A DNA stretch of 64,000 nt from an uncultured bacterium (GTDB lineage Bacteria; Actinomycetota; Acidimicrobiia; Spongiisociales; ZC4RG35), in the NCBI GenBank assembly GCA_963825585.1, contig CAWGTX010000001.1:669613-733612 (forward strand), in the 5' to 3' direction. The position numbers and the translations under genes were made by a program. The notes beneath the pieces are model-generated. The model had not been told where the DNA came from. It was given only the letters and a program-made list of their open reading frames with translations, and searched no databases. This document shows, in pieces, positions 1 to 47,989 of this stretch. Each line of letters starts with the position of its first letter. Within the stretch, counting starts at the first letter, position 1.

Positions 1-1173
1 CGGCTGCGAGTGGCTCCGGGTGCCGGTTCGGTGCTCGATGGCCAAGAGACGCCGATCGACATCAGGGACATCGAGTTCCAGGACCTCCTTCCCCGGCCCG
101 AGATCGCCACCGACCTCGGCTCCGTCGAGGAACTGGTGCGGGGTCGTCGGGTGATGGTGACCGGTGCCGGCGGTTCGATCGGCTCTGAGATCGTGAACCA
201 GGTGCTCGCCTTCGAGCCGGCGGCGGTCATCGCCCTCGACAACGACGAGACCCACCTGCATGAGACCGTCCTCAGAGTGGGAGCCAAGGGAAGCCTGGTG
301 AAGTCGGTGCTCTGCGACATCCGCGACGCCGCCAAGCTCAACAAGGTGATGGCCGCCAACGCACCCGAGGTGGTGTTCCACGCTGCCGCCCTCAAACACG
401 TGCCCGTGCTCGAGCACTTCCCCGAAGAAGCAGTCTTCACCAACGTGCTCGGCACCAAGAACGTGATCGACGCCGTCTCCCGGGTGGGAGCCGACCGCTT
501 CGTGCTCATCTCGACCGACAAGGCAGTGGAGCCGTCCTCGGTGATGGGTGCAACCAAACGCATCGCCGAGATGCTCACCCAGGTCGCCAATCAGCGGCGC
601 GACGGATGCGTGTACACCTGCGTGCGGTTCGGCAACGTGTTGGGTTCCCGTGGCAGCGTGGTGCCGACCTTCGTGCACCAGATCCACTCCGGTGGTCCTG
701 TCACGATCACCGACCCGGCCATGACCCGGTTCTTCATGACGGTCCCCGAGGCGGTGCAGCTGGTGTTGCAGGCAGCCACCTTGGCGCAGGGCGGGGAAGT
801 CTTCGTGCTCGACATGGGTGAGCCCGTGAAGGTGATGGACCTTGCCCGTCGCATGATCCGGCTGGCGGGCCTGGTGCCCGGTCGTGACATCGAGGTCGCC
901 GTCACCGGCATCCGCCCCGGAGAGAAGCTCTACGAGATCCTCGCCGAGGTCCCGCTGCAGCCGAGCAGCCACCCCAAGATCAACCTCGCCCGGCCGCCGG
1001 CCCCGGGTGCGGTCTCGCTGCTCGATGCGATCCGCACGCTCGAGACGCTCGCCCGCAACGAGGCGTCCGAGGACCTGATCGGGATCGTGAAGGGTGTGGC
1101 CGCCATGACCACCGCCGACCAGGTCGTCGACCTACGCGAGCTCGACTCCGAAGAAGTCGTCACGTTGAAGTGA
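1..1173 (+). CDS. Polysaccharide biosynthesis protein, CapD/WbpM/PglF-like NAD-dependent nucleotide-sugar 4,6-dehydratase (C-terminal catalytic part; 5' end outside window)
   Basis: ORF 10..1173 has no upstream stop before the window edge. Rossmann motif VTGAGGSIGSE, SDR-type dehydratase body, and the acidic C-terminal tail typical of CapD-family proteins. Confidence 0.8.
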   Translation, partial: RLRVAPGAGSVLDGQETPIDIRDIEFQDLLPRPEIATDLGSVEELVRGRRVMVTGAGGSIGSEIVNQVLAFEPAAVIALDNDETHLHETVLRVGAKGSLVKSVLCDIRDAAKLNKVMAANAPEVVFHAAALKHVPVLEHFPEEAVFTNVLGTKNVIDAVSRVGADRFVLISTDKAVEPSSVMGATKRIAEMLTQVANQRRDGCVYTCVRFGNVLGSRGSVVPTFVHQIHSGGPVTITDPAMTRFFMTVPEAVQLVLQAATLAQGGEVFVLDMGEPVKVMDLARRMIRLAGLVPGRDIEVAVTGIRPGEKLYEILAEVPLQPSSHPKINLARPPAPGAVSLLDAIRTLETLARNEASEDLIGIVKGVAAMTTADQVVDLRELDSEEVVTLK

Positions 1174-1279
1174 TCGGTTGCGCCCGGGTCGTCCAGACCC
1201 GGGCACACCGCCGCTTGCGTGTTCTCCGCCAGCGGCTTCACTGTCCCGTGCACGTCCATCCTGCGAAGAGGCCGAACGT

Positions 1280-2074
1280 ATGAGCCTGCCCGCCACGATC
1301 GCCCGGAGATCGCTCAAGACCGCCTCGATGGTGTTCGACCGGTTCGGGCCTCCGCTGCGGGGGCCACGTCTTCTCATCTATCACCAGGTGGGTGCCGGTA
1401 ACGGCCAGGAGATGGATCTGGCGCTGGATGACTTCCGTCGGCAGATGACCTGGCTGGCGTCGACCGGTGGAGTTGTTTCGCTCGAGGATGCCCTCGTGAC
1501 CCCGGACGATCCCTCGGACCGCTACGTCATCACCTTCGACGACGGGTACGACGACATGTACCGCAACGGCTTTCCGATTCTCCGCGACCTGGGTCTGCCC
1601 TTCGTGCTGTATCTGACCACCCAACCGATCGAGAGCAGAGCGCCGCTCCGCGACGACGGGCTCTCCACTCCGTGCACCTGGGATCAGGTGGGCGACATGA
1701 TGGGCAGCGGTCTCGTGACCCTCGGAGCTCACACCCATTCCCATCCCGACTTCCGTCACATCTCCTCTGCTCACATCGAAGACGAGGTGGGAGTCTCGAA
1801 CCGTCTGATCACCGAACGGACCGGCCACGCTCCGCGTCACTTCACCTACACCTGGGGCTACTGGTCCGAGCAGGCCGACCCCATCGTGCGCGCCGCCTAC
1901 GACACGGCCACCGTTGCCGGCTGCAGGACGGCGCTGGGCGCTCCGGCCAACGCCATCCCACGCCTGCCGGTGCAGCTCACCGACGGGTTCGGCTTCTTCC
2001 GGGCCAGGATGCGGGGAGGGTTCCGTCTCGAGGACACGATCCGTCGTCGCCTCTCCGGGTACAACGGTCCCTGA
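1280..2074 (+). CDS. Polysaccharide deacetylase (NodB homology domain)
   Basis: ITFDDGY and HTHSH NodB motifs. ATG at 1280 (MSLPATIA) chosen over the longer Arg/Pro-rich ORF start at 1178. Confidence 0.75.
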   Translation: MSLPATIARRSLKTASMVFDRFGPPLRGPRLLIYHQVGAGNGQEMDLALDDFRRQMTWLASTGGVVSLEDALVTPDDPSDRYVITFDDGYDDMYRNGFPILRDLGLPFVLYLTTQPIESRAPLRDDGLSTPCTWDQVGDMMGSGLVTLGAHTHSHPDFRHISSAHIEDEVGVSNRLITERTGHAPRHFTYTWGYWSEQADPIVRAAYDTATVAGCRTALGAPANAIPRLPVQLTDGFGFFRARMRGGFRLEDTIRRRLSGYNGP

Positions 2075-2075
2075 C

Positions 2076-3236
2076 GTGGCGCACGTACTCCATGTGATCA
2101 ACCGTTTCGGTACGTCCGGCGGTGCCGAGAATCAGCTCTTCAACAATCTCCGGAGGTTCTCGCATCCGGACCTCACCCACAGCGTGGTTCATGTGTTCCG
2201 AGGTACCGGCGACGATCCGCTTCCCGAGATCCCCAAACACGCCCTGTTCGGTGTGGGGGAGTCCCCCGGCCGGCTGGCGATCATCCGGGCCCTCGACCGC
2301 TACGTGATGGACACCCGACCCGACATCCTGCACTGTTCGCTGGCGGACGCGGCCCTGGCCGCCCGCGTGGTCGGTCGGCGCAGACACATTCCGGTGGTCG
2401 AGAGCCTGGTCAACATCAGCCACGATCCGGTTCGCATCGTCGACAATCCCTCTGTGAGCCCGCTCAAGCTGGCCGGCCACCGGATGCTCGACCGCATCAC
2501 GATGCGGCATGTGACCCGCTTCCACGCCCTGACTCGGGCGGTGGCACGATCCTGGCAGGCGAACGTGGGTATCTCGGCCGACCGGACGGTGATCATCCCG
2601 CGTGGCATCGACGTCGAGGCCTTCGATCACCGTGCCGGCATCGATCGGGCCGCCCTGCGCCAGTCGATCGGCGTGGCGCCCGAGGTCCCGATGCTGCTGA
2701 ACGTCGCCCGACAGGAACCACAGAAAGGCCAGCGCTACCTGCTGGAGGCACTCCCCGCCATCATCGAGCGCCATCCGGAAGTCGTGGCCGTGTTCGCCGG
2801 CCGCGACGGCAACTCCTCACCGATGCTCCGCAAACTGGTGAGCGATCTGGGAATCGAGTCCCACATACGTTTCCTCGGCGTGCGGGACGACGTTCCGGCC
2901 CTGCTGATGGCGGCGGACGTGTTCGTGTTCCCGTCATTGTTCGAAGGGTTGGGGGTTTCGCTGCTGGAGGCGATGGCAGGCGGGGGTGCGGCCTGTGCGG
3001 TTTCGGACGCTCCGCCATTCGACGAGATCGTCGACCCGGGAACCACCGGGGTCATGTTCCGATCGGCAGACGCCAAGGCGTTGGCCGTCACCGTGTCGGC
3101 ACTGCTGGCCGACCCGGAGGCGAGGGCGAAGATGTCGGACGCGGCCCGAGCCGAGGTGATGGCCAACTACCGCATCGAGGCCGTCACCCGTCGACTCGAG
3201 GACATGTACCTGGGCGTGCTCGCCGAACGGCGCTGA
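2076..3236 (+). CDS. Glycosyltransferase family 4 (GT-B, group 1)
   Basis: HVINRFGTSGGAE N-terminus; C-terminal EGLGVSLLEAMAGG...D E-x7-E motif. GTG at 2076 sits 1 nt after the deacetylase stop, and the longer ORF start at 1914 overlaps the upstream gene. Confidence 0.8.
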   Translation: MAHVLHVINRFGTSGGAENQLFNNLRRFSHPDLTHSVVHVFRGTGDDPLPEIPKHALFGVGESPGRLAIIRALDRYVMDTRPDILHCSLADAALAARVVGRRRHIPVVESLVNISHDPVRIVDNPSVSPLKLAGHRMLDRITMRHVTRFHALTRAVARSWQANVGISADRTVIIPRGIDVEAFDHRAGIDRAALRQSIGVAPEVPMLLNVARQEPQKGQRYLLEALPAIIERHPEVVAVFAGRDGNSSPMLRKLVSDLGIESHIRFLGVRDDVPALLMAADVFVFPSLFEGLGVSLLEAMAGGGAACAVSDAPPFDEIVDPGTTGVMFRSADAKALAVTVSALLADPEARAKMSDAARAEVMANYRIEAVTRRLEDMYLGVLAERR

Positions 3237-3398
3237 ACCCGGATGTCTGTTGCCTTCCCGAGGGCGCCGCTGCCCTCGCACCGCCGGGATGGTGGCGGAC
3301 ATGACACATGTGAGCCGAACGTCCGAGGCTTCCACCGACACTCGCTTGCTTCGTGTTGCGGCTGCAGAGCACCACCTGGCTTGATGCGTCGTGCTGTT

Positions 3399-3908
3399 GG
3401 TCGATAGCAACGTCTGGCTGACTGCAGGGGATCGTCGTTCCCGAGACTTGTGCGGGATCGCTGCCTCCAGTCCGTCTGCCCTACCTGCTGCCTGTTTGTC
3501 GTGGCCGCTGAGTCGGGCGTCGCAACGTCCGGGCCCGGCGAGCGCTTCGGGAACGATGAGGTCGACTGGGATGATTTCGTCATGGCCGTCCACGATGATC
3601 GACGTCCCCCAGATTCCCGGACGATCGGGCTGGGTTCTCGCGAATCCGGCCGCGGTCATCAACTCGGCCTGATTCGGCTTATCGGCGAGGGTGGCAGGGT
3701 CGATGGCCAGGTCGGCATCTGTGGTGTAGCTGGCCGAGAACGACAGTGCGACCTCGTCGGTGCGCAGGTAAACGGCTTGTGCGCCCACCAGCACCAGCGA
3801 GCGGCGATGGTCGGCAAGAGCATCGAGCGCTTCCAGCAGGACCCGACGAGCCTCGACCATCAACCGAGGCGCGCTCGTCATGAGCAGGTACCCGAGGTGC
3901 GGCGCCAT
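3399..3908 (-). pseudogene. Possible Pol-beta/AbiEii-like nucleotidyltransferase remnant (N-terminal ~170 aa protein-like; remainder of ORF is antisense to the GT4 gene)
   Basis: ORF 2934..3908 has an N-terminus LVLVGAQAVYLRTDEVALSFSASYTTDADLAI resembling the G[SA]x9-13DxD nucleotidyltransferase motif. The region has lower GC than its flanks, and the ORF tail overlaps the GT4 gene on the other strand. Confidence 0.25.
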
Positions 3909-3984
3909 GCCGATGAGGCAGGGTTCACGGTCGATGGATTGCCGTTCGCCGGGAGGTCTCGGAGAAGGTGGGGCTGCGAGCGGT

Positions 3985-4833
3985 TCACGCCCAGTCAGCG
4001 ACCAGATCCCCGAAGCGTTCCTTCATGCGCTCGATTCGGGGCGCGTACATCGCTCTCAACTCGATTTCGAGTTCGGTTGGCATTGCGCTGCCACCGCCGC
4101 GGGATCCGACCAGGTCGGCGCCGGGTGCGCCGCGGTCGATCACGGTGTCGAGCGGGAAGGCATCCCAGTCGACATCGGTGCCGACGCCGAGGAAGTCGAA
4201 CAGCGAGATGAGCAGCGCCTTGGGGTCCGACACCATTCGGTCGTAGCTGTCGACCCACAGTCGCTCGGCCGGGTAGCGCTTCGTCCACCGGTCCACGATG
4301 CCCACGTAGTCGCCGCTGTCGAGGCTGTGGACCGAGCGGGCGTGGGCGATGTACTCGGACACCGGGACCGAGTCGACGGGGCGGTTGCGTTGGCGGGCCA
4401 CATTCATCTGGGCGTGTGACCAGGCACGGTCCACCGGGTGGCGGATCATCAGCAGCAGCCTGGCGTCGGGGAGCAGGTCGGCCACCACGTCGATCCGATC
4501 GGGGGTCAGCTCCGAGTAGTTCGGTGTGATCTCGCCGCGGAGGCGGTCCCTGGCGGCATCGAAGTGGGCGGCGTACCACCGCAACGAGTGGTGGTAGAAG
4601 TGGCAGAAGTAGTGCAGCTCCTTCTCGGGAGGAACGAACACGCCTGGATGTGCAGCCAGGCAATGGTGCAGCCAAGTGGAACCTGCCTTCGGGGCTCCCA
4701 GTCCGAGAAACTGCGGCAGCGCCAATTTGTCGCTGGACAGGACCCCCCGGCGTGTCAACGCCCGCTCCGGGGCCGAGATCGCGTACTCGGCCCTCTGCGC
4801 GGTCCGGACTACGCGCTTGACCGCCTGCTTCAT
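3985..4833 (-). CDS. PAPS-dependent sulfotransferase family protein
   Basis: 5'-PSB motif LGAPKAGSTWLHHCL (PKxGTTW-like). Start ATG (MKQAVKR) at 4833 is confirmed on the sequence and overlaps the stop of the upstream FemAB-like gene (ATGA). Confidence 0.8.
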   Translation of the reverse strand: MKQAVKRVVRTAQRAEYAISAPERALTRRGVLSSDKLALPQFLGLGAPKAGSTWLHHCLAAHPGVFVPPEKELHYFCHFYHHSLRWYAAHFDAARDRLRGEITPNYSELTPDRIDVVADLLPDARLLLMIRHPVDRAWSHAQMNVARQRNRPVDSVPVSEYIAHARSVHSLDSGDYVGIVDRWTKRYPAERLWVDSYDRMVSDPKALLISLFDFLGVGTDVDWDAFPLDTVIDRGAPGADLVGSRGGGSAMPTELEIELRAMYAPRIERMKERFGDLVADWA

Positions 4834-5879
4834 CGCACCCGTCCTTTCAACGCTTCGGCGGCTCTCCGTCGAAGTCCGACCGCCGCTCCCGCCATCCCAC
4901 GCTGCAACGACCAGGTGGTGTCGGCCGAGGGCACCGCCCCGAAGCGGCGTTTGTAGGCGTCGTCGCCACGCAGGAAGTCGAATGTGGTGGCGCCGGTCTC
5001 GGTGGCGTGGCGCATCGTCGTGCTCACCAACACCGACCCGAGGCTTTGTTTCACATAGTCCTGCGACCATCCGGTCTGGTAGTACGCGAACGTGGCGCCG
5101 AACCGAAACCCGTACAGCACCCCCACGATGTCGCCGTCGAGCCGCGCCACACACGCCATCGGCCCCCGGCCGTCCGAAGCCCCGTCGATGAGGTGTCGGT
5201 GGAACGCCTCGCGATCGCGGTCGAAGCTGGACCCCCATCCCATGCCCTCCGCCCGAACCGCATGCAGCTCGAGCAGACTACGGAAGACGGCCTCGTCGAT
5301 ACCGGAGGCCGGGACCATCGCAACGGAGATGCCGAGCTTGACGAGTTGCCGTTCGAAGTAGCGGAGTTTCTTGGCGAAATCCGCCGAACCGGGAAACCAT
5401 TCGTCGCCGGAACCGAGCGGAGCAACCAGGGTCGGGTTGTCCTCGATCTTGCTGAACCCGGCCTCGGCCAGGCCCTCGACGGACTCTGGCGCCATGTTGG
5501 ACAACACGATCGGGCCTGAGGTGGATTCGATCACCCAGCCTGCAACGTCCCGCCGCAAGCCCGGACGTGCCGGCCACCCGAGGTGGTCCCCGGCGCCGGC
5601 GCCACTGCCGGTGTTCACCCACATCCGTACCGCAGGTCCACCCGAGCGGAGGAGGGGCTGGTTCACGCGGGACACCGCGCAGACGGCCTCCAGAGCGCCC
5701 TCGGGGTCTCGCCACAGTCCGATCCGGGTCTCGGGGCGCCCCGCCAGACGGTCCCACCAGGCAACCGCCCAGGTCCCGGTCTGGAAGAACGAGCCGCCGG
5801 TGGACTCGGCGAGATCGTCCCATTCCGCCACCGGAAGCGCTTCGTCATCCGGTGCCACGACTGCGTCCGGACCTCTCAC
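4830..5879 (-). CDS. FemAB-like / BioF2-like GNAT acetyltransferase (Acetyltransf_6, CelD-like)
   Basis: 349-aa ORF with the FemAB/CelD-type architecture GSFFQTGTWA...VARLDGDIVGVLYGFRF...KRRFGA. Confidence 0.65.
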   Translation of the reverse strand: MRGPDAVVAPDDEALPVAEWDDLAESTGGSFFQTGTWAVAWWDRLAGRPETRIGLWRDPEGALEAVCAVSRVNQPLLRSGGPAVRMWVNTGSGAGAGDHLGWPARPGLRRDVAGWVIESTSGPIVLSNMAPESVEGLAEAGFSKIEDNPTLVAPLGSGDEWFPGSADFAKKLRYFERQLVKLGISVAMVPASGIDEAVFRSLLELHAVRAEGMGWGSSFDRDREAFHRHLIDGASDGRGPMACVARLDGDIVGVLYGFRFGATFAYYQTGWSQDYVKQSLGSVLVSTTMRHATETGATTFDFLRGDDAYKRRFGAVPSADTTWSLQRGMAGAAVGLRRRAAEALKGRVR

Positions 5880-5941
5880 GGAGCGAGTCCCGATGGATGG
5901 GTGGCGCTGGGAGGCATCGGCTCTATCCTGCTCGATCTCAC

Positions 5942-6460
5942 ATGGTCATCGGCCGCTATCACATCATCTCCTACGAGCGGGCTACCTCCATCGAGGGCTT
6001 CCGGGCGGACAAGGCGATCCGAATCGCGTCCGCCGCCGATCTCGATCTGCTCGCTCCGCTGCTGGCGCCGGGCGTGGATCACGCCGCCCGAATCGCCGCC
6101 GGCGGTGTCTGCGTGTGGGCGGCCACACCGGACGGTGCCCCGGCCGGGCTGCAGTGGGTCAACGTGTCCGGTCATCCCGACCGTCACTTCGGCGTCCTCA
6201 GCCGCCCCGGCAATGGCGTGGCCTACCTCAACCAGATCGTGGTGGACGACCGGTACCGGGTGCGGGGTTATGCCCCGCGGGTGATGATCGCTTCGATCGA
6301 GGCGGCCGGAAAGGCCGGATTCCCCAGGGTTCGGGGGTTGGTGGCGACCAGCAACACGACCATGCAGACGCTGGTGGAGGGGTTGGGGTTCGAACGGGTC
6401 GGGTCCCAGCGCGGCGTGCGGATCGGCCGCGACCTGACCGTCCGGGTGCCCGGGAACTGA
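5942..6460 (+). CDS. GNAT family N-acetyltransferase
   Basis: MVIGRYHII...; acetyl-CoA binding segment QIVVDDRYRVRGYAPRVMIASIEAAGKAGF. Start ATG at 5942 is in frame with ORF 5567..6460. Confidence 0.7.
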   Translation: MVIGRYHIISYERATSIEGFRADKAIRIASAADLDLLAPLLAPGVDHAARIAAGGVCVWAATPDGAPAGLQWVNVSGHPDRHFGVLSRPGNGVAYLNQIVVDDRYRVRGYAPRVMIASIEAAGKAGFPRVRGLVATSNTTMQTLVEGLGFERVGSQRGVRIGRDLTVRVPGN

Positions 6461-6732: not shown

Positions 6733-7389
6733 ATGAACAGGTTTTCGAGTACGTTCGAACGCCCGAAGCGGCGAAATCCGTCGGGTGCGGTCTTTTGGGT
6801 CTTCGTTTTCCTGGCGATTTCGATCCAGCCGCAGGTCCCGGCCTTCGCCCAGGTGTCGCCGTTCGACGACACCGCAGGATCGGTCCATGAGGCCGACATC
6901 GCCCTCCTCGCCGAGTGGGGGATCACCAAGGGTTGCACCGACTCCTCGTACTGCCCGGAGGTTTCGGTGACTCGAGGTCAGATGGCAGCATTCATGCGGC
7001 GATCGTTCGTGACACCCACCAGCCAATACGACTACTTCGGTGACGACGAAGACTCGGTGTTCGAAGCCGACATCAACTCGATCACGGGTGTGGGCATCAC
7101 CCAAGGATGCAATCCGCCCACCAGTTCGCAGTACTGCACCGACGACGTGCTCACCCGGGGTCAGATGGCTGCCTTCCTCCGTCGCACGCTGAGCCTCCCG
7201 GCAGGGCCCGACGTGTTCTCCGACGACGAGAACTCGGTGTTCGAGGCGGACATCAACGCTCTCGCCGCCGCCGGCATCGCCAAGGGGTGCTCCGATGGCC
7301 GGTTCTGCCCCGATGACGTGATCACGCGAGCACAGATGGCCAGCTTCCTGGTCAGGGCACTCGACCACCTCGGATGCCGGGGGGCATGA
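6733..7389 (+). CDS. Small secreted protein made of three SLH (S-layer homology)-like repeats
   Basis: Signal-like N-terminus. Three ~55-aa repeats F-DD--SVFEADI--L---GI--GC-----CP---VTRGQMAAFL-R-L match the SLH consensus (F.D....w...aI..L...GI..G.....F.P...iTRaE.A..L.ral), with an added conserved Cys pair. Confidence 0.7.
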   Translation: MNRFSSTFERPKRRNPSGAVFWVFVFLAISIQPQVPAFAQVSPFDDTAGSVHEADIALLAEWGITKGCTDSSYCPEVSVTRGQMAAFMRRSFVTPTSQYDYFGDDEDSVFEADINSITGVGITQGCNPPTSSQYCTDDVLTRGQMAAFLRRTLSLPAGPDVFSDDENSVFEADINALAAAGIAKGCSDGRFCPDDVITRAQMASFLVRALDHLGCRGA

Positions 7390-9077
7390 CCATGACAGAA
7401 CTCAACCGTCGACAGTTCCTCCGCCGCGCCGGGCTGGTGGCCGTCGCCACCGGAGTCCCTGCGGTGGCATCCGTCACCCGTCCGCAGGCCGCCCAGGCCG
7501 CCACGCTCACCACCGACACCACCGTGTCGACCCTCACCGTCGCAGCGGGCGAGGTGTACGAGTTCGACCCGAACCGATCGGTCACGCTCACCGTCACGGG
7601 CGGTGGCGACGCCGCGTTGATGGTGCTCGGCACGCTGCGGATGCGCCCGGCCAGCGCCGGCATCGTCCACAAGATCCGGTTCACCGGCGGCGGCGAGATC
7701 ATGGTGATGGACAATGGTCGTCTCGACATCCAAGGGACGACGAAACAGGCGTGGAACCGTACCGGCGACCATGCCACGTGGACCTCCCAGGATCAGCTGA
7801 TCGTCGCTCCCATCAACCCCGGCGACTACACGTTCCGCTCCTTCACCAAGGGTGGGACGGTTCAGCAGGTCAGCAACCGCCACGGTGTGTTCAAGGCCGA
7901 GGTGATGAACCTGACCCGCAACGTCGTGATCGAGGGCACCACCTCGGTTCCGATGCGGCGCATCATGCTCATGTCCAATGTCGCCCAGACCATCAACTAC
8001 GCCGAGGTCCGGTACGTGGGCGACCCCGACGAGATCGGCTTCTACCCGATCCACTTCCACCTGATGGGGGAGGGTGCCAGGGGGAGCGTGGTCGAGGGCA
8101 CCGTCGTGCACCACGCCTACCACCACGCGTTCGTCGTGCACGGCAGCCACGGCGTCACGCTGCGCGACTGTGTCGCCTACGACGTCGAGGCCGACGCCTA
8201 CTGGTGGGATCTGCCGCCCGAGAACGACTTCGACAACGACATCAACAACACCCACGACGTCGTGTACGAGAACTGCATCGCCGCCGACGTGCATCGGGCC
8301 GACCTCAACGATCCGGTTTCCCGGCCCAACGAGTTGTCCGGATTCCTCATGGGTGCGGGTGTCAACAACACGGTCCGTGGCTGCGTGGCCGTCGGGGTGG
8401 GCGGCGGGGTTCGGACATCCGGCTACCACTGGCCCTCGAAGGCGAACTCGCAGACCAGTCCCTGGGTGTTCGAGGACTGCATGACCCACAACAGCCGTGA
8501 GTACGGCATCTTCGTGTGGCAGAACACTGCATCCGAGCGTCACAACATCGATCGGTTCGTCTCGTTCAACAACGGGTTGGGACCGGTGAAGCACGGCGCA
8601 TACAACAACCGGGGATACCACTACCGCGACTGTGTGTTCTTCGGGAACGGCGGGGGCCTGGAACAGAACGCCCAGACCACCGTTCCCGAGAGCAACCAGA
8701 CCAAGGAGCGGCTGTCGTTCGAACGCACCGTTTTCGACGATGCGCCGGTTTCGCTGCTCATGGTCGACCACAACCTCGACCCGTCACAGCCAACGCTGTA
8801 CCTCGACTGTGAGTTCGCCGGACAGTTGGTCGTGAACAACGATCGCCGTCACGGCTGGTACGACTTCGTTCGGTGCAACGTCTCGGAGTCGGACTTCGAC
8901 CTCTCCGACATGAAGCCTGAGTCGATCATCCGGATCCAGGACGCCAACGGCGACGCCGTCGAGATCACCACGTCCGGCTCGCGATCGATCCCGGCGTTCT
9001 GGGACGGCTGGTCCTCGACGGTGCCCAAGCCCGGCCAGGAGTTCCCCGACTGGGATCCCTCCTGTGGTAATCGCTGA
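7383..9077 (+). CDS. Tat-signal secreted protein, probable right-handed beta-helix carbohydrate-active enzyme (function unknown)
   Basis: Twin-arginine motif NRRQFLRRAGLVAVATG...AQAA. Gly/Asn/Thr/Val-rich sequence with His clusters (IHFHLMGEG, HHAYHHAF). Its start overlaps the end of the SLH-repeat gene. Confidence 0.6.
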   Translation, partial: GMTMTELNRRQFLRRAGLVAVATGVPAVASVTRPQAAQAATLTTDTTVSTLTVAAGEVYEFDPNRSVTLTVTGGGDAALMVLGTLRMRPASAGIVHKIRFTGGGEIMVMDNGRLDIQGTTKQAWNRTGDHATWTSQDQLIVAPINPGDYTFRSFTKGGTVQQVSNRHGVFKAEVMNLTRNVVIEGTTSVPMRRIMLMSNVAQTINYAEVRYVGDPDEIGFYPIHFHLMGEGARGSVVEGTVVHHAYHHAFVVHGSHGVTLRDCVAYDVEADAYWWDLPPENDFDNDINNTHDVVYENCIAADVHRADLNDPVSRPNELSGFLMGAGVNNTVRGCVAVGVGGGVRTSGYHWPSKANSQTSPWVFEDCMTHNSREYGIFVWQNTASERHNIDRFVSFNNGLGPVKHGAYNNRGYHYRDCVFFGNGGGLEQNAQTTVPESNQTKERLSFERTVFDDAPVSLLMVDHNLDPSQPTLYLDCEFAGQLVVNNDRRHGWYDFVRCNVSESDFDLSDMKPESIIRIQDANGDAVEITTSGSRSIPAFWDGWSSTVPKPGQEFPDWDPSCGNR

Positions 9078-9210: not shown

Positions 9211-10251
9211 ATGACGAGCGGAGATGTGATGACGGGTCCGGCGGTCGCCGGCAACGCAGAGACCAGGGGTGTGGTCGTTCGCGACGTCACCAAGGTCTAC
9301 AAGCCATCCTCGAAGGTGCTCAGCTTCCTGCTCCGTTCGCCCATCAAGAACGACGTTCACGCCCTCAACGGAATCAGCTTCTCGGTGCCCGCCGGGGAGA
9401 TCTGTGCTGTCGTCGGCCCCAACGGTGCCGGGAAGTCGACCACGTTCCGGATCCTGATCGGGCTGACCACCCCCACCACCGGCTCGGCCACCATCATGGG
9501 AATGAGCTGTGTGACCGAGTCGATGGAGGTCCGAAAGGTCATCGGATGGATGCCTTCGGAGGATCGAAGCCTGCTCATGCGCCTCAGCTGCGCCGACAAC
9601 CTGGTGTTCCACGGTCAGTTGCAGGGTCTCAACGGCAACAAGCTCAAGCAGCGCATCCAGGAGTCGCTCGATCTGGTGGGCATCGGGCACCGGGCCCGGG
9701 ACTCGGTGTTCTCGTTGTCATCCGGAATGCGGGCGCGGCTCCAGCTGGCCCGTTCGCTCCTGCATCAGCCCAAGGTGCTCATCCTCGACGAGCCCACCGC
9801 CACCGTCGACCCGATCGCCTCGTACGAACTCATCAACACCCTGCAGCGGGTTGCGGCTGAACGCAACATGTCGGTGCTCATCAGCTCGCACCGCCTCGAC
9901 GAGATCGAAGCGCTCAGCTCGCACGTGATCCTGCTCGACGGCGGCGCCATCAAGTACGACGGTGATCTCGAATCGCTCCGGGACCTGTGGACCCGGCCCA
10001 GGGTCGTCGCCGAGTTCCGGGATCCCGATGCGGCCCGGACCGCCGAGAAAGCCCTGTCGTCGGGTCAGGTGGTGGAAGTCGACACCACCGAGAGCATGGG
10101 AGTGGGCGGCCTTCTGGTCGCAGGGGCCACCATCGGAGACGTGGTGTCGTCGCTGCCGCCCGAATCCACTCGGGCGCTCATCACCATCCGGGAGGACCGA
10201 ATGCCCCTCCGTGACCTGCTCGCCGCCGTCTACCGGGGTGACCAGGTATGA
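9211..10251 (+). CDS. ABC transporter ATP-binding protein, ABC-2/Wzt/TagH-like polysaccharide exporter, with ~95-aa C-terminal extension
   Basis: Walker A GPNGAGKST, signature LSSGMRARL, Walker B LILDEPTATVD. Its stop overlaps the start of the downstream permease. Confidence 0.85.
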   Translation: MTSGDVMTGPAVAGNAETRGVVVRDVTKVYKPSSKVLSFLLRSPIKNDVHALNGISFSVPAGEICAVVGPNGAGKSTTFRILIGLTTPTTGSATIMGMSCVTESMEVRKVIGWMPSEDRSLLMRLSCADNLVFHGQLQGLNGNKLKQRIQESLDLVGIGHRARDSVFSLSSGMRARLQLARSLLHQPKVLILDEPTATVDPIASYELINTLQRVAAERNMSVLISSHRLDEIEALSSHVILLDGGAIKYDGDLESLRDLWTRPRVVAEFRDPDAARTAEKALSSGQVVEVDTTESMGVGGLLVAGATIGDVVSSLPPESTRALITIREDRMPLRDLLAAVYRGDQV

Positions 10252-11072
10252 AGCGCATCAAGGCGAAGCTGTGGAGGATGAAACAGACCTCTATGGCCTT
10301 CCTCCGTGCCGACATCGTCGAAGAGGCGAGTTATCCGATGTCGCTGGTGCTCGGCCAGGCCGGCATCGTTGTGCCGATCTTCGTGTCGTTCTTCATCGCC
10401 GACCTCGTCGGTGACTCCAGGGAGGTGGGTGGCGACTACCTCACGTTCGCCACCGTCGGGCTGGCCATGAGTGCCGCCCTCCAGGCCACCCTGCAGGGGT
10501 TCGGAACCCGGCTCCAACAGATCCAGGACCGCGGTCTGTTCGAGTCGATCCTGGTGGAGCCGATCAAATGGTTGTGGATGCCGGTCGCCATGAACCAGTG
10601 GAACATGTTCCGGGGGTTCATCAACGCCATCTTGTTGCTGCTCATCGGCAGTGCCCTCGGCGCCGACATCCGGCTGGCGGGCATCGGCGCCACTGTGGTG
10701 ATCGTGTTGGCGGGGATGGCGGCGGTCAGTTCGATCGGCATCCTTTCTGCCAGCCTGATGGTGCTCGCCAAACGTTCCCAGCCGGTGGTGGTGCTGTACG
10801 GCCTGGCCGCATCGATCTTCGGTGGCGCCCTGTTCTCGTTGTCGCAGCTGCCCACCTGGCTGCAACCGATCAGCTACCTCTTCCCGCACACCTACGTGCT
10901 CAACGGCGTCCGTTCGGCGTTGATGGACGATCCGGGCACCTTCGTGATGCCGGTTCCGGATGCGCTGCTCGGACTCGGCATCACAACCCTGGTGGTGGGC
11001 GGCATCGGGCTGTTCCTGTTCCAGAAGTCGTTGCAGACCGCCCGCGAACTCGGCCTGCTCAGCGGGTACTGA
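10248..11072 (+). CDS. ABC-2 type transporter permease (Wzm-like)
   Basis: Six-TM hydrophobic profile typical of ABC-2 permeases. ATGA overlap with the ATPase gene. Confidence 0.8.
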   Translation: MKRIKAKLWRMKQTSMAFLRADIVEEASYPMSLVLGQAGIVVPIFVSFFIADLVGDSREVGGDYLTFATVGLAMSAALQATLQGFGTRLQQIQDRGLFESILVEPIKWLWMPVAMNQWNMFRGFINAILLLLIGSALGADIRLAGIGATVVIVLAGMAAVSSIGILSASLMVLAKRSQPVVVLYGLAASIFGGALFSLSQLPTWLQPISYLFPHTYVLNGVRSALMDDPGTFVMPVPDALLGLGITTLVVGGIGLFLFQKSLQTARELGLLSGY

Positions 11073-11073
11073 C

Positions 11074-11940
11074 ATGACGGCCGTCAAGGAGCTCGCCCGC
11101 CAGAAGCTCTCGGTCAACGCCCGGCACCAGATCTCGCTCCTCCGGGTGAAATCACGGATGGCATGGCCGTCCATGGGCATGCTCCCGAACGTGCTCGTGA
11201 TCGGAGCCCAGCGGGCCGGCACGTCGTCGATCTACCGCTACCTCGGATCACATCCCGACGTGTTCGCCTCACTCCGCAAGGAGGTCGAGTACTTCTCGAC
11301 GCGGATGTCGATGGGGGAGCGCTGGTACCGGGCCCATTTCCCGTTGATCACCCGCCCCAAGCTGGCGTTCGAGGCAACCCCCGACTATCTGCTGCATCCA
11401 AGGGCGGCCGAACGTGCCGCCGCACGCATCCCCGACCTCAAAGCGGTGGCGCTCCTCCGAAGCCCCGTCACCCGGGCCTTCAGCCAGTACGGCCATCAGC
11501 GTCGTTTGAACAAGGAGCCGCTGAGCTTCATCGATGCGCTCCGGGCCGAGCCCGAGCGCATCGCCGGCGACCTGGATCGACTGGCCGCTGATCAGGACCA
11601 CCCCGGCATCGAAGTCCGCGTCCACGGCTACATGGAACGGGGCCGCTACGCCCCGCAACTCCAACGCTGGGTCGACGCCCTGGGACGCGAGCGCATCCAC
11701 GTGATCCGCACCGAAGACCTGTGGGCCGACCCGGCCGGCACGTACACCGGCCTGCTCGACTTCCTCGGCCTGCGCCACGTGATGCCCTCTTCCCTCGGCG
11801 AGAACTACAGCTACGTGAGGGACACCCCCAAACCCGAGAAGGCGATGCCGCCAGAAGCCGAGGCCCACCTCCGCCAGCAACTCCAGCCCGAGATCGAAGC
11901 GATCGAGGCGATGCTCGGGCGGCAGATGGGGTGGCTCTAG
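11074..11940 (+). CDS. PAPS-dependent sulfotransferase family protein
   Basis: LPNVLVIGAQRAGTSSIYRYL 5'-PSB motif. ATG at 11074 lies 2 nt after the permease stop. The longer ORF start at 10960 would overlap the permease. Confidence 0.8.
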   Translation: MTAVKELARQKLSVNARHQISLLRVKSRMAWPSMGMLPNVLVIGAQRAGTSSIYRYLGSHPDVFASLRKEVEYFSTRMSMGERWYRAHFPLITRPKLAFEATPDYLLHPRAAERAAARIPDLKAVALLRSPVTRAFSQYGHQRRLNKEPLSFIDALRAEPERIAGDLDRLAADQDHPGIEVRVHGYMERGRYAPQLQRWVDALGRERIHVIRTEDLWADPAGTYTGLLDFLGLRHVMPSSLGENYSYVRDTPKPEKAMPPEAEAHLRQQLQPEIEAIEAMLGRQMGWL

Positions 11941-23818: not shown

Positions 23819-25009
23819 ATGTGGAAGCGGTTTCGACGGTTCGGCGGCGCGGCGGGGATGGTGGGTCTCGCCGCTCTGGTGGTGCTCGGAGTGACGCCGG
23901 TTCCGGCCACGGCCGCACCGGGTGACGTCGGTGTGCTGGGTTGCTCGAACACTGCCATCGCTGCCATCGGGTACAACCAGGTCTCGGATGTCGGTCGGTT
24001 GTGGCCCGCGTCCACCGACGACAACCCCTTTGCCGATTACTGGGGCAACGACATCGTGAAGTGGGCTGACGTGAACGGTCAGGGTCGCAGCGCTTGGGCA
24101 GCGTTCGATGCCGAGCTCGGTGCCAACCCCTCCACAACCGCCGTGTGGTTCCAGGTGTGCGTCCGGGCCGAGACTCCGGGCTCGACCGTCACCGTCGACA
24201 CGATCGTCGCCGAGATCCGGCGACGGCTCCCGCAAGTCACCGTCTACGCCAGTCCTCTCGACGACACTCCCTCGTGCCTGATCGGTGATCCGGACCTTTC
24301 GCTCGAGTACGTGGACCATCTCGTGGACACCGGTCAGGCCTTGCGCGGTCCGACTTTGAGTCCTCTTCCGCCCGACCAGGTGAAGGGTTGCCACGCCTCC
24401 GGCGACGGCATCGACCTGCACGGTGCCGATCTGGCGGCCTTCTTCGACGATGGTGCACTACCCCAGCCCGGCCCTGAACCGAGCGGATTCGTCGACGTCG
24501 GATCGGACCACGTGTTCTCGGCCGATATCGCCTGGCTGGCCGCCCGGGGGATCACCGTTGGATGCAACCCCCCCTCCAACGACCGCTTCTGTCCGGAAGA
24601 ACCGGTGTCACGCGGCCAGATGGCGGCGTTCCTCGCACGTGCGCTCTCGCTGCCCCCATCCGAAGTCGACGCATTCGCAGACGACGCCGGCTCTGTGTTC
24701 GAAGCCGAGATCGACGCCCTCGCCGCAGCCGGCATCACGTCCGGATGCTCGTCGCAGGGCTTCTGTCCCGACGATCCGGTCACGCGGGCGCAGATGGCGA
24801 CGTTCCTCGTCAACGCCTTCGACCTGACCGGGGGCGAGGGGACCGACCTCTTCAGCGACGACAGCGGCGTCCACGAGTTGGACATCGACACGCTCGGAAC
24901 CTCGGGCGTGACCCAGGGCTGCAACCCGCCGCTCAACGATCGCTACTGCCCCGACGATCCCGTCACGAGAGGCCAGATGGCCGCATTCCTGCATCGCGCC
25001 GAGGGGTGA
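23819..25009 (+). CDS. Secreted protein with unknown ~200-aa N-terminal domain and four C-terminal SLH-like repeats
   Basis: Signal peptide MWKRFRRFGGAAGMVGLAALVVLGVTPVPATAAPGD, then four repeats of the type FVDVGSDHVFSADIAWLAARGITVGCNPPSNDRFCPEEPVSRGQMAAFLARAL. Confidence 0.7.
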   Translation: MWKRFRRFGGAAGMVGLAALVVLGVTPVPATAAPGDVGVLGCSNTAIAAIGYNQVSDVGRLWPASTDDNPFADYWGNDIVKWADVNGQGRSAWAAFDAELGANPSTTAVWFQVCVRAETPGSTVTVDTIVAEIRRRLPQVTVYASPLDDTPSCLIGDPDLSLEYVDHLVDTGQALRGPTLSPLPPDQVKGCHASGDGIDLHGADLAAFFDDGALPQPGPEPSGFVDVGSDHVFSADIAWLAARGITVGCNPPSNDRFCPEEPVSRGQMAAFLARALSLPPSEVDAFADDAGSVFEAEIDALAAAGITSGCSSQGFCPDDPVTRAQMATFLVNAFDLTGGEGTDLFSDDSGVHELDIDTLGTSGVTQGCNPPLNDRYCPDDPVTRGQMAAFLHRAEG

Positions 25010-30194: not shown

Positions 30195-31559
30195 GTGCGC
30201 GTCGTTCTGGCTTCACTCACAGTGCTGTCGCTCATGTCCGTTGCAGGTCAGGCGGCCGCTGACGACTACCCGTCCGGCCGTTTCGATGATGACGACCGCC
30301 ACCCGGCCGAGGTGGCGATGAACGTCCTCGCCGACTGGGGCGTCGTCGACGGGTGCAACCCGCCGGCCAACACCCACTCGTGTCCGGACTCGTCGGTCAC
30401 CAGGGCCGAGGCGGCCAAGATCGTGGTCGAGATCGGTGAGTTCACCGGAGGGCTACTGGAGGGCGGTGGCGGCGAGACTGATCGTTTCGTCGACGACGGA
30501 GAGGCGCTCGGTGGCGGTGCGGAGCGATACTTCGAAACACTGGCCGGCATCGCTGCGCTCCATGGTTGCGATCCGCCCACCAACAGACGCGTCTGCCCCG
30601 ATCGAGGGGTCACACGGGGCCAGATCGCCAAGATTCTCGTCGCCGCCTACGGACTCGAAGCACCCGCCGACCACGACGCTCCCTGGGCCGACATCAACGG
30701 GGAGTTCTACGCCGATGCCGCTCGCATCGCCTCCTACCACGGGATGTGGGACGAGCGTTCCCGCTTCGACGGTCACCAGCGTGCGACCCGCGGCGAGCTG
30801 GCGACGGCAGCGCTCGAGGCCTCCGGGACGACGGTGTGCCGCCCAGACCCGTTCACCCAGGCCCACGTGGCCGAATTGGAGGATCGGTATCCGGGAAAGC
30901 TGATCACCGCCCACGTCTACGACACCAGGACCGGATGCCACTACCGGCTCTCGCACGACAATCGCCAGCGCACGGCATCGGTGTTCAAGGTGATGGTGAT
31001 GGCGGGCACGCTCCTGGAAGCACAGGACGACGGACGTGCCGTGTCCACCTGGGAGCTGAGCCAACTGGATCCCATGATCACCGAATCGGCCAACGGTCCG
31101 GTCCGCTCGCTTTGGTACTCGTTCGGTGCGGCACCCTGGTACCGCAATCAGGGTCGAATCTTCGGACTGGAGGACACCACGGTCCGCGGCGACGACGGCA
31201 GCGCCTGGGGCCTCACCACCACGTCGGCTGCCGATCAGGTCGACCTGATCCGGCAGGTTCTCCTCGGAGACTGGGGTCCTCTTTCCGCCGAGTCGCAGGC
31301 CCTTGCGATCGACCTCATGACCGACGTGGTGCCCAGCCAGACCTGGGGCGTGACCGCCGGAGTCCCAGACGGATGGACCGTCGCCCAGAAGAACGGCTTT
31401 GCGGGCATCACCATCAACTCGGTCGGCTGGGTCGACGAACCGGGGTCCAGCAACGGTTACGTGGTCGCCATCCTGAGCCAGGGATGGCCCGATCACCCCA
31501 GCGGCATCGCGGCTGTGGAGCGAGTCAACCGGTGGGTGGCGGAGGCGATGACGGAGTGA
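30195..31559 (+). CDS. Secreted protein: N-terminal SLH-like repeats fused to class A beta-lactamase-like / serine-hydrolase (PBP-like) domain
   Basis: Signal VRVVLASLTVLSLMSVAGQAAA (GTG 30195, uncertain). SLH-like repeats (GVVDGCNPPANTHSCPDSSVTRAEAAKIVV; ALHGCDPPTNRRVCPDRGVTRGQIAKILV). Serine-hydrolase motifs SVFK (SxxK), SAN (SxN) and KNG (KTG-like). Confidence 0.6.
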   Translation: MRVVLASLTVLSLMSVAGQAAADDYPSGRFDDDDRHPAEVAMNVLADWGVVDGCNPPANTHSCPDSSVTRAEAAKIVVEIGEFTGGLLEGGGGETDRFVDDGEALGGGAERYFETLAGIAALHGCDPPTNRRVCPDRGVTRGQIAKILVAAYGLEAPADHDAPWADINGEFYADAARIASYHGMWDERSRFDGHQRATRGELATAALEASGTTVCRPDPFTQAHVAELEDRYPGKLITAHVYDTRTGCHYRLSHDNRQRTASVFKVMVMAGTLLEAQDDGRAVSTWELSQLDPMITESANGPVRSLWYSFGAAPWYRNQGRIFGLEDTTVRGDDGSAWGLTTTSAADQVDLIRQVLLGDWGPLSAESQALAIDLMTDVVPSQTWGVTAGVPDGWTVAQKNGFAGITINSVGWVDEPGSSNGYVVAILSQGWPDHPSGIAAVERVNRWVAEAMTE

Positions 31560-37007: not shown

Positions 37008-38000
37008 TCAGCTGATCGTGACCACGATGCGGGTTCGGCGAATCAGCACATCCTGGTGGTACCAGCGGCCCTCGATCGAGAAGCTACCCGACGCCGGCGT
37101 GACGACCGTGTGGTTCCAGTTTCTCGTCACAACGGCTCCTGTCGACGTCTCGACCGGGGCCGGTCTCGGCCGTTGGGTGCCGTCGATGAGCAGATCGAAA
37201 CGGGTCGTCGAGGATCGGAAAGCCCCTTCCTCGCCTCCGACGAACGGAAGGACGTGGTCCCATCCCTCCGCCACCGAGATGCGCCGGTTTGGTCCACTGG
37301 TGGCGCTCCCGGAGCATGCGGTGCCGTCTTTCGAGCAGAACCAGCCTCGCGCCAGGTCGACCAACGGGGGCCGTTGGGGAAGCGCCAGCGCGCGTGCGAG
37401 AAACGATGCCATCTGTTCCCGTGTGACCGAGTTGGATGGGCAGTAGCGATCGTTGTCTGGTGGATTGCAGCCGACCGTGATCCCCGCCGTGGCGAGTCGT
37501 TCGATGTCGGCCTCGAACACCGAGCCGTTGTCGTCGACGAAGTCCACGTCGCCGCGGTCGGTGAGATCGAGAGCCCGCACCAGAAACGACGCCATCTGGC
37601 CTCTCGTGACCGGGGCATTCGGGCAGAACAGGGTGTTGCCGGGCGGGTTGCATCCCCGCGAGATGCCGGTGGCTGCGAGCCACTCGATGTCCCCCTCGAA
37701 CACGGTCCCCGTCGCGTCCGAGAACGAGGCGTCAGGCCCGATTGCGACACTGCCCTCGAATCCGCGTCGGAGGAAGGCTGCCATCTGTCCCCTCGTGACC
37801 GTCGCCTGCGGACAGAACCTGTCGGAGGTGGGTGGATTGCAGCCGACCGTGACACCGGCCGCGGCGATCGCCTCGATTGCCGACTCGTGCACCGAGGTGT
37901 CGTCGTCGGTGAAGCGTCCGGACAGGCGAGCGGCGCCGGCCGGTGCCACCGACCAGAGGAGTGCACTCACGACCACCAACGCGAGAGTCCGGGACTTCAC
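37008..38000 (-). CDS. Secreted protein with three SLH-like repeats and ~110-aa C-terminal domain of unknown function
   Basis: GTG at 38000 (VKSRTLALVVVSALLWSVAPAGAA signal), in a GTGA overlap with the upstream gene. Repeats as in 6733..7389. The N-terminal 237 aa of track ORF 37008..38711 is Arg-rich artefact. Confidence 0.65.
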   Translation of the reverse strand: MKSRTLALVVVSALLWSVAPAGAARLSGRFTDDDTSVHESAIEAIAAAGVTVGCNPPTSDRFCPQATVTRGQMAAFLRRGFEGSVAIGPDASFSDATGTVFEGDIEWLAATGISRGCNPPGNTLFCPNAPVTRGQMASFLVRALDLTDRGDVDFVDDNGSVFEADIERLATAGITVGCNPPDNDRYCPSNSVTREQMASFLARALALPQRPPLVDLARGWFCSKDGTACSGSATSGPNRRISVAEGWDHVLPFVGGEEGAFRSSTTRFDLLIDGTQRPRPAPVETSTGAVVTRNWNHTVVTPASGSFSIEGRWYHQDVLIRRTRIVVTIS

Positions 38001-42888: not shown

Positions 42889-43077
42889 TGCTGGCTGCTG
42901 GCTGCTGGCTGCTGGCTGCTGGCGAAGAGTCGTCCGAAGCAGCGCGAAAGGGGCTGGGTCGACCGCTCCGGCGTGAGGACCGCTGCCGCTCTGCCCCATC
43001 TGTCGCGGCTTCGCTGCGCTTCCGGGCGTTCTGCGTTCTGCGTCTGGCTGGCAGCTGGTAGCTGGTAGCTACCAGCT
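42889..43077. repeat. Intergenic repeat element: (CTGGCTG)4-5 array at 42889-42916 and 11-bp-stem palindrome AGCTGGTAGCT-GGT-AGCTACCAGCT at 43053-43077
   Basis: Exact heptamer array. Perfect hairpin overlapping the stop of the convergent CysQ gene. Confidence 0.6.
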
Positions 43078-43849
43078 ACTTCGTGATCTCCTGAACCGCT
43101 TCCATCAGCGCTCCATTCGTTGCGAGGAAGCCTGTCAGGAGTGGGTCGGGGCGGTTGAAGCGGGGTTGTGTTCCGTCGAGGAATCGCACCTGGCCGCCAC
43201 CGGCCACCACCAGGGCGGCACCGCCGACCACGTCCCACTCGTTCTTGGGGACCAGGGTCCAGGTGGCGTCGGCCAGGCCTGCAGCCACCAGGCCGAGTTT
43301 GTAGGCGACCGAGCCCATGTTGCGGACTGAGACCGGGGTACGGAAGAAGCGGTCCCACTCACCCCGCTTGACTTCGCTGCGGCTGGCGAGCACGAGTGCG
43401 CCGTCGATCGACCGGGTGGATGTGACGCCGGCCGGCTGACCGTTCAGCGTGACCCCGTGGCCAACCGCACCGAGGATGAGGTGGTTGGGCCCGGGCGCCA
43501 GGATGCCCCCGGCGACCGGGAGACCGTCCTCGACCAGCCCGATGGAGACGCACCACTCCGGGATGCCGTCGACGAACTCGCGGGTGCCGTCGAGCGGATC
43601 TACCACCCACACCCGGGAACACTCGAGGCGGCCCACGTCGTCGGCGGTCTCCTCGGAGAGCCATCCTTCTCCCGCCTCGAGCAGGGACTCCTTCATGATG
43701 GCGTCGATGAGGATGTCGGCCTCGGTCACCGGATCGCCCCCGGCCTTTGCGGAGGCGGCCACCGAACCCGCCGTGAACGACTGGAGGGCGGATCCGGCGC
43801 GCGTGAGCGCCGCCTCGATGCGGTCCAGATCCTTGGTGTACTTGCTCAT
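43076..43849 (-). CDS. cysQ: Inositol-monophosphatase family protein, probable 3'(2'),5'-bisphosphate nucleotidase (CysQ-like PAP phosphatase)
   Basis: WVVDPLDGT and WDVVGG motifs. Lies next to the cysDN-cysC genes and a sulfate-type transporter. Confidence 0.65.
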   Translation of the reverse strand: MSKYTKDLDRIEAALTRAGSALQSFTAGSVAASAKAGGDPVTEADILIDAIMKESLLEAGEGWLSEETADDVGRLECSRVWVVDPLDGTREFVDGIPEWCVSIGLVEDGLPVAGGILAPGPNHLILGAVGHGVTLNGQPAGVTSTRSIDGALVLASRSEVKRGEWDRFFRTPVSVRNMGSVAYKLGLVAAGLADATWTLVPKNEWDVVGGAALVVAGGGQVRFLDGTQPRFNRPDPLLTGFLATNGALMEAVQEITK

Positions 43850-43862
43850 CTCACTCCAGGTT

Positions 43863-45629: not shown

Positions 45630-45683
45630 GAGACGAAGCTACGGTCTAGCAGCTCTCGCCATTTCGGATATCCTGTGCTGCTC

Positions 45684-46589
45684 ATGTCGTACCAGCTGGA
45701 CCACCTGCGCGCGCTCGAAGCCGAGTCGATCCACATCATCAGGGAAGCAGTGGCCGAGGGCGAACGCCCCGTGCTGCTGTTCTCCGGGGGCAAGGACTCG
45801 GCTGTCGTTCTGCGCCTCGCCGTCAAGGCGTTTCACCCTGCCCGCCTTCCGTTTCCGGTCATGCACGTCGATACCGGGCACAACTTCCCCGAGGTGATCG
45901 AGTTCCGCGACCGAACCGTCGCCGAGCTCGGCTGCACCCTCATCGTCGCCTCCGTACAGGAGTCGATCGATGCGGGTCGTGTCGTCGAGGAGACCGGCCC
46001 CCGGGCCAGTCGCAATCGACTCCAAACCGAGTCGCTGCTCTCGGCGATCGAGGAGAACCAGTTCGACGTCGTGTTCGGGGGTGCCCGGCGTGACGAGGAG
46101 AAGGCCCGTGCCAAGGAGCGGGTGTTCAGCTTCCGGGACGACTTCGGTCAGTGGGATCCGAAGAACCAGCGGCCCGAGCTTTGGAATCTCTACAACGCCC
46201 GCCATCGCAAGGGTGAGCATCTCCGGGTGTTCCCGATCTCGAACTGGACCGAGATGGACATCTACCAGTACATCCTCGACGAGCAGATCGACCTTCCGTC
46301 GGTGTACTTCTCCCACACCCGCCGTGTGTTCGAGCGGGACGGCATGCTCATGGCCGAGAACCCCCATCTCACCCTCATGGACAGCGAAGAGATCTTCGAG
46401 CGGGTGGTGCGGTTCCGCACGGTTGGCGACATGACCTGCACCGGCGCATTCGAATCGGTCGCCGCCAACATCGAGGACATCATCATCGAGGTGGCGGCCA
46501 GCCGTGTCACCGAACGTGGCGCCAGCCGGGCCGATGACAAGACGACCGAGGCCGCCATGGAGGATCGCAAGCGTGAGGGGTATTTCTAG
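45684..46589 (+). CDS. cysD: Sulfate adenylyltransferase subunit 2
   Basis: PAPS-reductase-fold PP-loop LFSGGKDSAVVL. Alternative GTG start at 45675. Confidence 0.9.
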   Translation: MSYQLDHLRALEAESIHIIREAVAEGERPVLLFSGGKDSAVVLRLAVKAFHPARLPFPVMHVDTGHNFPEVIEFRDRTVAELGCTLIVASVQESIDAGRVVEETGPRASRNRLQTESLLSAIEENQFDVVFGGARRDEEKARAKERVFSFRDDFGQWDPKNQRPELWNLYNARHRKGEHLRVFPISNWTEMDIYQYILDEQIDLPSVYFSHTRRVFERDGMLMAENPHLTLMDSEEIFERVVRFRTVGDMTCTGAFESVAANIEDIIIEVAASRVTERGASRADDKTTEAAMEDRKREGYF

Positions 46590-47870: not shown

Positions 47871-47878
47871 GAATGCAG

Positions 47879-47966
47879 GCTGCTAGCTGCTGGCTTCTGG
47901 CTGCTGGCTGGAAGCCAGGGGCGGCGAGCAGGAGCGTCTCTGGCTGGTAGCTGGTAGCCAGTAGCT
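47879..47966. repeat. Intergenic repeat element of the GCTGGCT family (arms GCTGCTAGCTGCTGGCTTCTGGCTGCTGGCTGG ... CTGGCTGGTAGCTGGTAGCCAGTAGC) between cysN and cysC
   Basis: Same motifs as the elements at 25075, 31561 and 42889. Confidence 0.5.
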
Positions 47967-47989
47967 CGCCGCTGAGTATTGGAGTCTTC

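Follow-up and report, generated by a model that had tools for sequence, protein, structure and literature searches.

SLH domains are known from textbooks as the non-covalent wall anchor of Firmicutes; in diderm Terrabacteria, they tether the outer membrane. To our knowledge, their use in Actinomycetota has barely been described. The window analysed here, a stretch of 64,000 nucleotides from an uncultured member of the Acidimicrobiia, encodes four proteins with SLH-like repeats that carry a pair of cysteines. It raises the questions whether these repeats are SLH domains, what the Cys pair does, and what the proteins hold at the cell surface. We consider it quite likely that they are wall-associated Cys-SLH proteins in which a disulfide-stapled trimer carries different passengers, and that one of them, A, is a stand-alone anchor for an enzyme. 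The SLH membership, the fold prediction, the invariance of the Cys pair, the export signals, the gene context and the fusions seen in homologs are direct results; from these we infer the disulfide, the binding of a wall polymer, the nature of the ligand and the association of A with the enzyme. Open reading frames are present at all four positions and are coding-like (GC3 0.78-0.80), and Sec-type signal peptides are readable in each product. Repeat coordinates in the following lines are those of the family HMM.

6733..7389, forward strand: paralog A, 218 aa; Sec signal peptide (aa 1-39, ending in AFA before Q), three Cys-pair SLH repeats (6859-7017, 7033-7200, 7213-7371) and a 6-residue tail.
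23819..25009, forward strand: paralog B, 396 aa; signal peptide, N-terminal domain of ~190 aa, three C-terminal Cys-pair SLH repeats within 24488-25006 (24488-24655, 24671-24829, 24845-25006).
30195..31559, forward strand, start uncertain between 30090 and 30195: paralog C, ~454 aa; signal peptide and two Cys-pair SLH repeats within 30279-30659 (30279-30446, 30492-30659).
~30669-30815 and ~30822-31556, forward strand: the rest of paralog C, a degenerate Cys-less repeat and a class-A-beta-lactamase-like serine hydrolase domain.
37008..38000, reverse strand: paralog D, 330 aa; signal peptide and three Cys-pair SLH repeats within 37377-37916 (37377-37544, 37560-37727, 37749-37916).
~37014-37337, reverse strand: the C-terminal Ig/FN3-like beta-sandwich of paralog D, with its own conserved Cys pair, CxKDGxxC.

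Searched with a repeat HMM derived from its own sequences, the window yielded exactly 11 repeats, all of them inside these four reading frames. They are SLH domains, as the earlier note had proposed. Against the Pfam profile PF00395, with a gathering score of 20.8 bits, A reached 50.1 bits (E 2.6e-13), B 55.6 bits (E 5e-15) and D 48.2 bits (E 1e-12), whereas C gave no match in this profile search. The profile check proposed for all four proteins was thus positive for three, and C is recognised only with a family HMM built from the paralogs, which matched two of its repeats at 77-85 bits; its third repeat is degenerate and lacks both Cys. The SLH domains of Sap and SbsB were matched by phmmer. 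In the predicted structure of A (AF2, pLDDT 89), the three repeats form the three-helix bundles of the 'three-pronged spindle' typical of SLH, and the top Foldseek match was 3PYW with a TM score of 0.83. Neither half of the counter-case set out beforehand, the lack of a PF00395 match together with a non-SLH fold, was encountered. Across 369 repeats, numbered according to PMC6081394, Gly29 of the G-I/V-T-x-G motif is conserved in 99% and Arg43 of T-R-G/A-Q/E in 100%. The column of SLH-Trp13 holds Val (43%), Ile (27%) or Thr (12%) instead of Trp and is followed by Phe (73%) or His (23%). Weak matches to Rap1a (PF18602) and DUF1285 on the GCNPP loop were sub-threshold and were taken as chance.

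The SLH assignment itself is not new, since NCBI already names the family 'S-layer homology domain-containing protein'. The Cys-SLH family comprises more than 4,800 clusters, mostly from uncultured Acidimicrobiia and already auto-annotated as SLH. Our literature search found no description of a Cys-pair SLH variant and nothing relevant on SLH in Acidimicrobiia or Microthrix, or on SLH disulfides in Actinomycetota. Like the SLH trimers of Firmicutes (B. anthracis Sap, 3PYW and 6BT4; P. alvei SpaA, 6CWC; PF00395, PS51272), the Cys-SLH modules consist of three tandem repeats of ~55 residues, share G-I-x-x-G with Gly29, F-x-P and T-R-x-E/Q with the invariant Arg43, and are placed N- or C-terminally on diverse exported enzymes. 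They differ in their host, the Acidimicrobiia, and, at SLH-30 and SLH-36, in invariant Cys that are wholly absent from classical SLH. Further differences are a 3-residue, N-P-P-containing insertion in most repeats, Val or Ile for Trp13 with Phe or His at position 14, and T-R-G-Q-M-A-A-F in place of T-R-A-E. To the OmpM/Slp-type tethers of diderm Terrabacteria (8BYM and 8BYS for OmpM; SlpA of Thermus and Deinococcus) the SLH sequence similarity is weak, and a shared distribution of SLH and CsaB has been described, with 'a few examples within Actinobacteria' among the cases; unlike these tethers, the Cys-SLH proteins have no porin or coiled-coil stalk and carry triple instead of single repeats, and the organism is presumably monoderm. 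Cys-SLH is therefore a lineage-specific variant of a well-known wall anchor and not a new kind of system. Its signature, G-C-N-P-P-x5-C-P ... T-R-G-Q-M-A-A-F, should be useful for annotating the surface proteomes of Acidimicrobiia.

The two invariant Cys per repeat that had been noticed at first reading form a strict pair. All 11 repeats of the window hold exactly two Cys, at SLH-30 and SLH-36, and among 366 complete repeats from 84 loci both Cys are present in 365, neither in one and a single one in none, which argues for a disulfide within the loop. The pair is also found in 264 of 265 loops of the 120 best homologs. The claim that every repeat carries the Cys in an insertion held for eight of the 11, which have the form G-C-N/D-P-P-x5-C-P/T with three additional residues. 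The other three (G-C-x5-C-P) align without gaps to the Sap SLH, and their Cys are therefore substitutions. The first Cys maps directly after Gly29 in the published numbering. A backbone flip of Gly29 is required for ligand binding, and its loop is conformationally variable and, in SpaA, mobile (PMC6081394). Exported actinobacterial proteins use disulfides, with even-numbered Cys as their indication, while Firmicutes exclude Cys from such proteins (PMC2823432), which explains the Cys-free classical SLH of Firmicutes. The counts in the paralogs are 10 in B, 6 in C and 8 in D; A, with 7, is the only one with an odd number. Judged by paired conservation and loop geometry, each Cys pair most likely forms an intra-repeat disulfide.

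In the mechanism that we propose, A-D would be exported via Sec and become wall-associated, targeted by a three-repeat SLH domain of the lineage-specific type. The three repeats would fold as one pseudo-threefold spindle, as in Sap and SpaA, with grooves lined by Gly29 (G-I-T-x-G) together with the invariant Arg in T-R-G-Q, the counterpart of TRAE. These grooves may bind, non-covalently, an anionic sugar that belongs to a secondary cell-wall polymer attached to peptidoglycan. Once the protein has left the cytoplasm for the oxidising space outside, the disulfide between Cys-30 and Cys-36 would form and close the inter-helix loop that lines the ligand groove. With this strictly paired Cys staple beside the ligand-gating glycine, the SLH module would be fitted to a secretome that is oxidising and uses disulfides. 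As passengers, C would present the class-A-beta-lactamase-like serine hydrolase, D the Ig-like beta-sandwich and B a domain without family match, whereas A would bring none.

Family searches with the N-terminal domain of B gave no match at all, and a relation to the C-terminal domain of 393-398-aa SLH proteins adjoining the beta-helix gene in two other loci (L084, L086) was dismissed, as BLASTP showed no match. The fusion of one paralog to a class-A-beta-lactamase-like serine hydrolase was borne out. The domain of C matches Beta-lactamase2 (PF13354) above gathering (47 bits, E 1.9e-12) and has the motifs SVFK, SAN and KNG; the family conserves SVFK and KNG, and many of its members have SAN or SDN. 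Its score against NCBIfam bla_class_A is only 37 bits at a cutoff of 200, below the equivalog level for class A beta-lactamases; we therefore class the domain as a serine hydrolase with a beta-lactamase fold rather than as a demonstrable beta-lactamase. Elsewhere, Cys-SLH is fused to many wall enzymes, among them those with SpoIID, VanW, PL14, CAP and beta-lactamase-like domains. SLH trimers thus appear to serve a large uncultured actinobacterial class as its general means of displaying wall enzymes.

Paralog A, which has no passenger, lies directly before another exported protein:

7392..9077, forward strand: beta-helix enzyme with the Tat signal NRRQFLRR and a CEMIP-like right-handed beta-helix (PF24606, E 1.6e-15).

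This protein is probably a glycan hydrolase or lyase. The twin-arginine sequence N-R-R-Q-F-L-R-R-A-G-L-V-A-V-A... is readable, the Pfam TAT_signal match reaches only E 0.08, and the ortholog P0126 carries the NCBI name of a twin-arginine signal protein. An overlap of A with the start of this gene had been claimed at first; it requires the upstream ATG at 7374, whereas orthologs align from the ATG at 7392 (MTELNRRQFLRR) onwards, which leaves a 2-nt gap after the stop codon of A (7387-7389). The overlap is probably a start-codon artefact. The idea of an anchor-plus-enzyme module fared better, as it is supported by conserved linkage, with both genes co-occurring in every cluster examined, and by enzyme homologs that are fused to an anchor. 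Five such homologs carry Cys-SLH (P0155, P0163, P0175, P0179, P0201), P0160 carries canonical SLH and five proteins carry CWB2 (PF04122). CWB2, known from the Cwp proteins of Clostridioides, is likewise a triple-repeat anchor for an anionic wall polymer but is unrelated to SLH in fold and sequence; as it, too, is fused to homologs from this enzyme family, CWB2 and Cys-SLH are functionally interchangeable. We infer that A most likely holds the beta-helix enzyme at the wall, directly or indirectly.

Both genes are framed by a glycan cluster, and further downstream the window encodes a PAPS supply. All of the following assignments were made with Pfam.

1-1173, forward strand: Polysacc_synt_2 dehydratase; upstream half of the glycan cluster (1..6460).
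1178-2074, forward strand: polysaccharide deacetylase; upstream half.
1914-3236, forward strand: GT4; upstream half.
3985-~4860, reverse strand: sulfotransferase; upstream half.
4830-5879, reverse strand: FemAB-like Acetyltransf_6; upstream half.
~5945-6460, forward strand: GNAT-like ORF; upstream half.
9211-10251, forward strand: ABC_tran ATPase; downstream half of the glycan cluster (9211..11940).
10248-11072, forward strand: ABC-2 permease of a TagGH/Wzm-Wzt-type exporter.
Ending at 11940, forward strand: second sulfotransferase; downstream half.
43076-43849, reverse strand: CysQ-like phosphatase; PAPS supply (43076..48580).
43863-45629, reverse strand: sulfate permease; PAPS supply.
45675-46589, forward strand: CysD; PAPS supply.
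46590-47870, forward strand: CysN; PAPS supply.
47990-48580, forward strand: APS kinase CysC; PAPS supply.

The glycan, sulfotransferase and PAPS-synthesis genes said to surround the paralogs are thus present. Both halves of the cluster are conserved in another locus (L001), where the gene order of the upstream half is the same and the A ortholog is 74% identical. In our proposal, A would act as the stand-alone anchor within this sulfated, ABC-exported glycan cluster, immediately upstream of the Tat-exported CEMIP-like beta-helix glycanase. One stand-alone copy of the module has a genetic link both to a cluster for the export of a sulfated glycan and to a beta-helix enzyme of hyaluronidase-like type.

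The nature of the ligand is a matter on which this context bears. It is conceivable, though we are doubtful, that the Cys-type SLH binds the sulfated glycan of the surrounding cluster instead of a pyruvylated polymer, with sulfate esters replacing the pyruvate carboxylate at Arg43. Besides the position of A within a cluster of two sulfotransferases and an exporter, kept in L001, and the complete PAPS pathway, sulfotransferases adjoin the beta-helix gene in two further loci (L085, L086). In SpaA, Trp13 stacks on ManNAc, and a sulfate ion was located at Lys130 in the ligand groove of the crystals (PMC6081394). The equivalents in the Cys-SLH repeats are Val or Ile for Trp13 and Ala or Ser for Lys130, and the pocket therefore differs from the characterised, pyruvyl-ManNAc-binding pocket of SpaA. 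No PF04230 gene, the family of the pyruvyltransferase csaB, was found among the ~55 ORFs scanned in the window. A phmmer search with E. coli WcaK, a PF04230 seed, also gave nothing in the ORFs of the window and 87 loci, with an insensitive single-sequence query and 3-10 kb around the SLH genes. However, Ca. Microthrix, also one of the Acidimicrobiia, reportedly possesses many SLH proteins plus two PF04230 proteins. The residues that contact pyruvate, Arg43 and Gly29, are fully conserved, so that the canonical ligand fits equally well, and the glycan cluster holds only A, while B, C and D lie among housekeeping genes. Our literature search found nothing relevant on sulfotransferases and the cell wall in Acidimicrobiia. 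With a sulfated ligand, SLH recognition would prove chemically broader than is known so far; otherwise, Cys-SLH would be a tidy case of the lineage-specific stabilisation of a known domain. Far less probable is the reading in which the Cys pairs bind metal or act as a redox switch that tunes wall binding. Strict pairwise conservation alone would fit a two-thiol metal site equally well, and next to D lies a thioredoxin-like protein, anchored in the membrane, with the motif CSTC. Yet with two thiols in each repeat and the three prongs well apart, no complete metal site results, and even-numbered Cys in the exported proteins of an actinobacterium indicate disulfides. Moreover, Gly and Pro flank the C-x5-C and C-x8-C loops, as is typical for closed hairpins, and DSSP assigned a bridge inside the repeat-3 loop of the predicted A structure. 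Structural disulfides remain the preferred reading.

How A might hold its enzyme leads to the tails of both proteins. That of A contains a seventh, unpaired Cys215 (nt 7375-7377, in ...LGCRGA), which is present in 22 of 22 A-type ortholog clusters, down to ~55% identity. In one of the lineages included, the genes of A and of the enzyme are not neighbours, and overlap with a ribosome-binding site is therefore no explanation. The enzyme ends in a subgroup-specific tail, PGQEFPDWDPSCGNR, whose Cys is found in 16 of 16 orthologs, down to 45% identity; its other invariant Cys belong to the beta-helix ladder, with a spacing of ~35 residues. An intermolecular disulfide between Cys215 and the enzyme Cys at -4 (...PSCGNR) is a possible, albeit unlikely, form of coupling. 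It would agree with the odd Cys count of A, the invariance of both tail Cys, the constant company of the two genes, and the fact that tail-less enzyme homologs are often fused directly to anchors. On the other hand, neither tail Cys varies, which leaves no cases of co-loss; a C-terminal Cys is also seen outside these orthologs, in further members of the family and in 10 additional beta-helix homologs; and A could form a homodimer instead. The yeast a-agglutinin Aga1p-Aga2p is a disulfide-linked pair of wall anchor and passenger, eukaryotic and GPI/glucan-linked. If the disulfide reading is right, A and the enzyme would be a split pair of this kind by analogy only, with a separate anchor holding its passenger by disulfides and no homology. 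We regard it as improbable that both hold together, namely that the stapled trimer recognises the sulfated wall polymer from the cluster of A and that A captures the enzyme via Cys215 and Cys(-4); in that case, a polymer-remodelling enzyme would be placed on its own substrate.

An oxidative-folding operon beside D was considered and rejected, as the product of 38449-39021 (reverse strand) has a weak DsbD_TM match (E 0.006) but zero Cys. The product of the neighbouring gene (39090-40046, reverse strand) has a TM helix and a CSTC motif.

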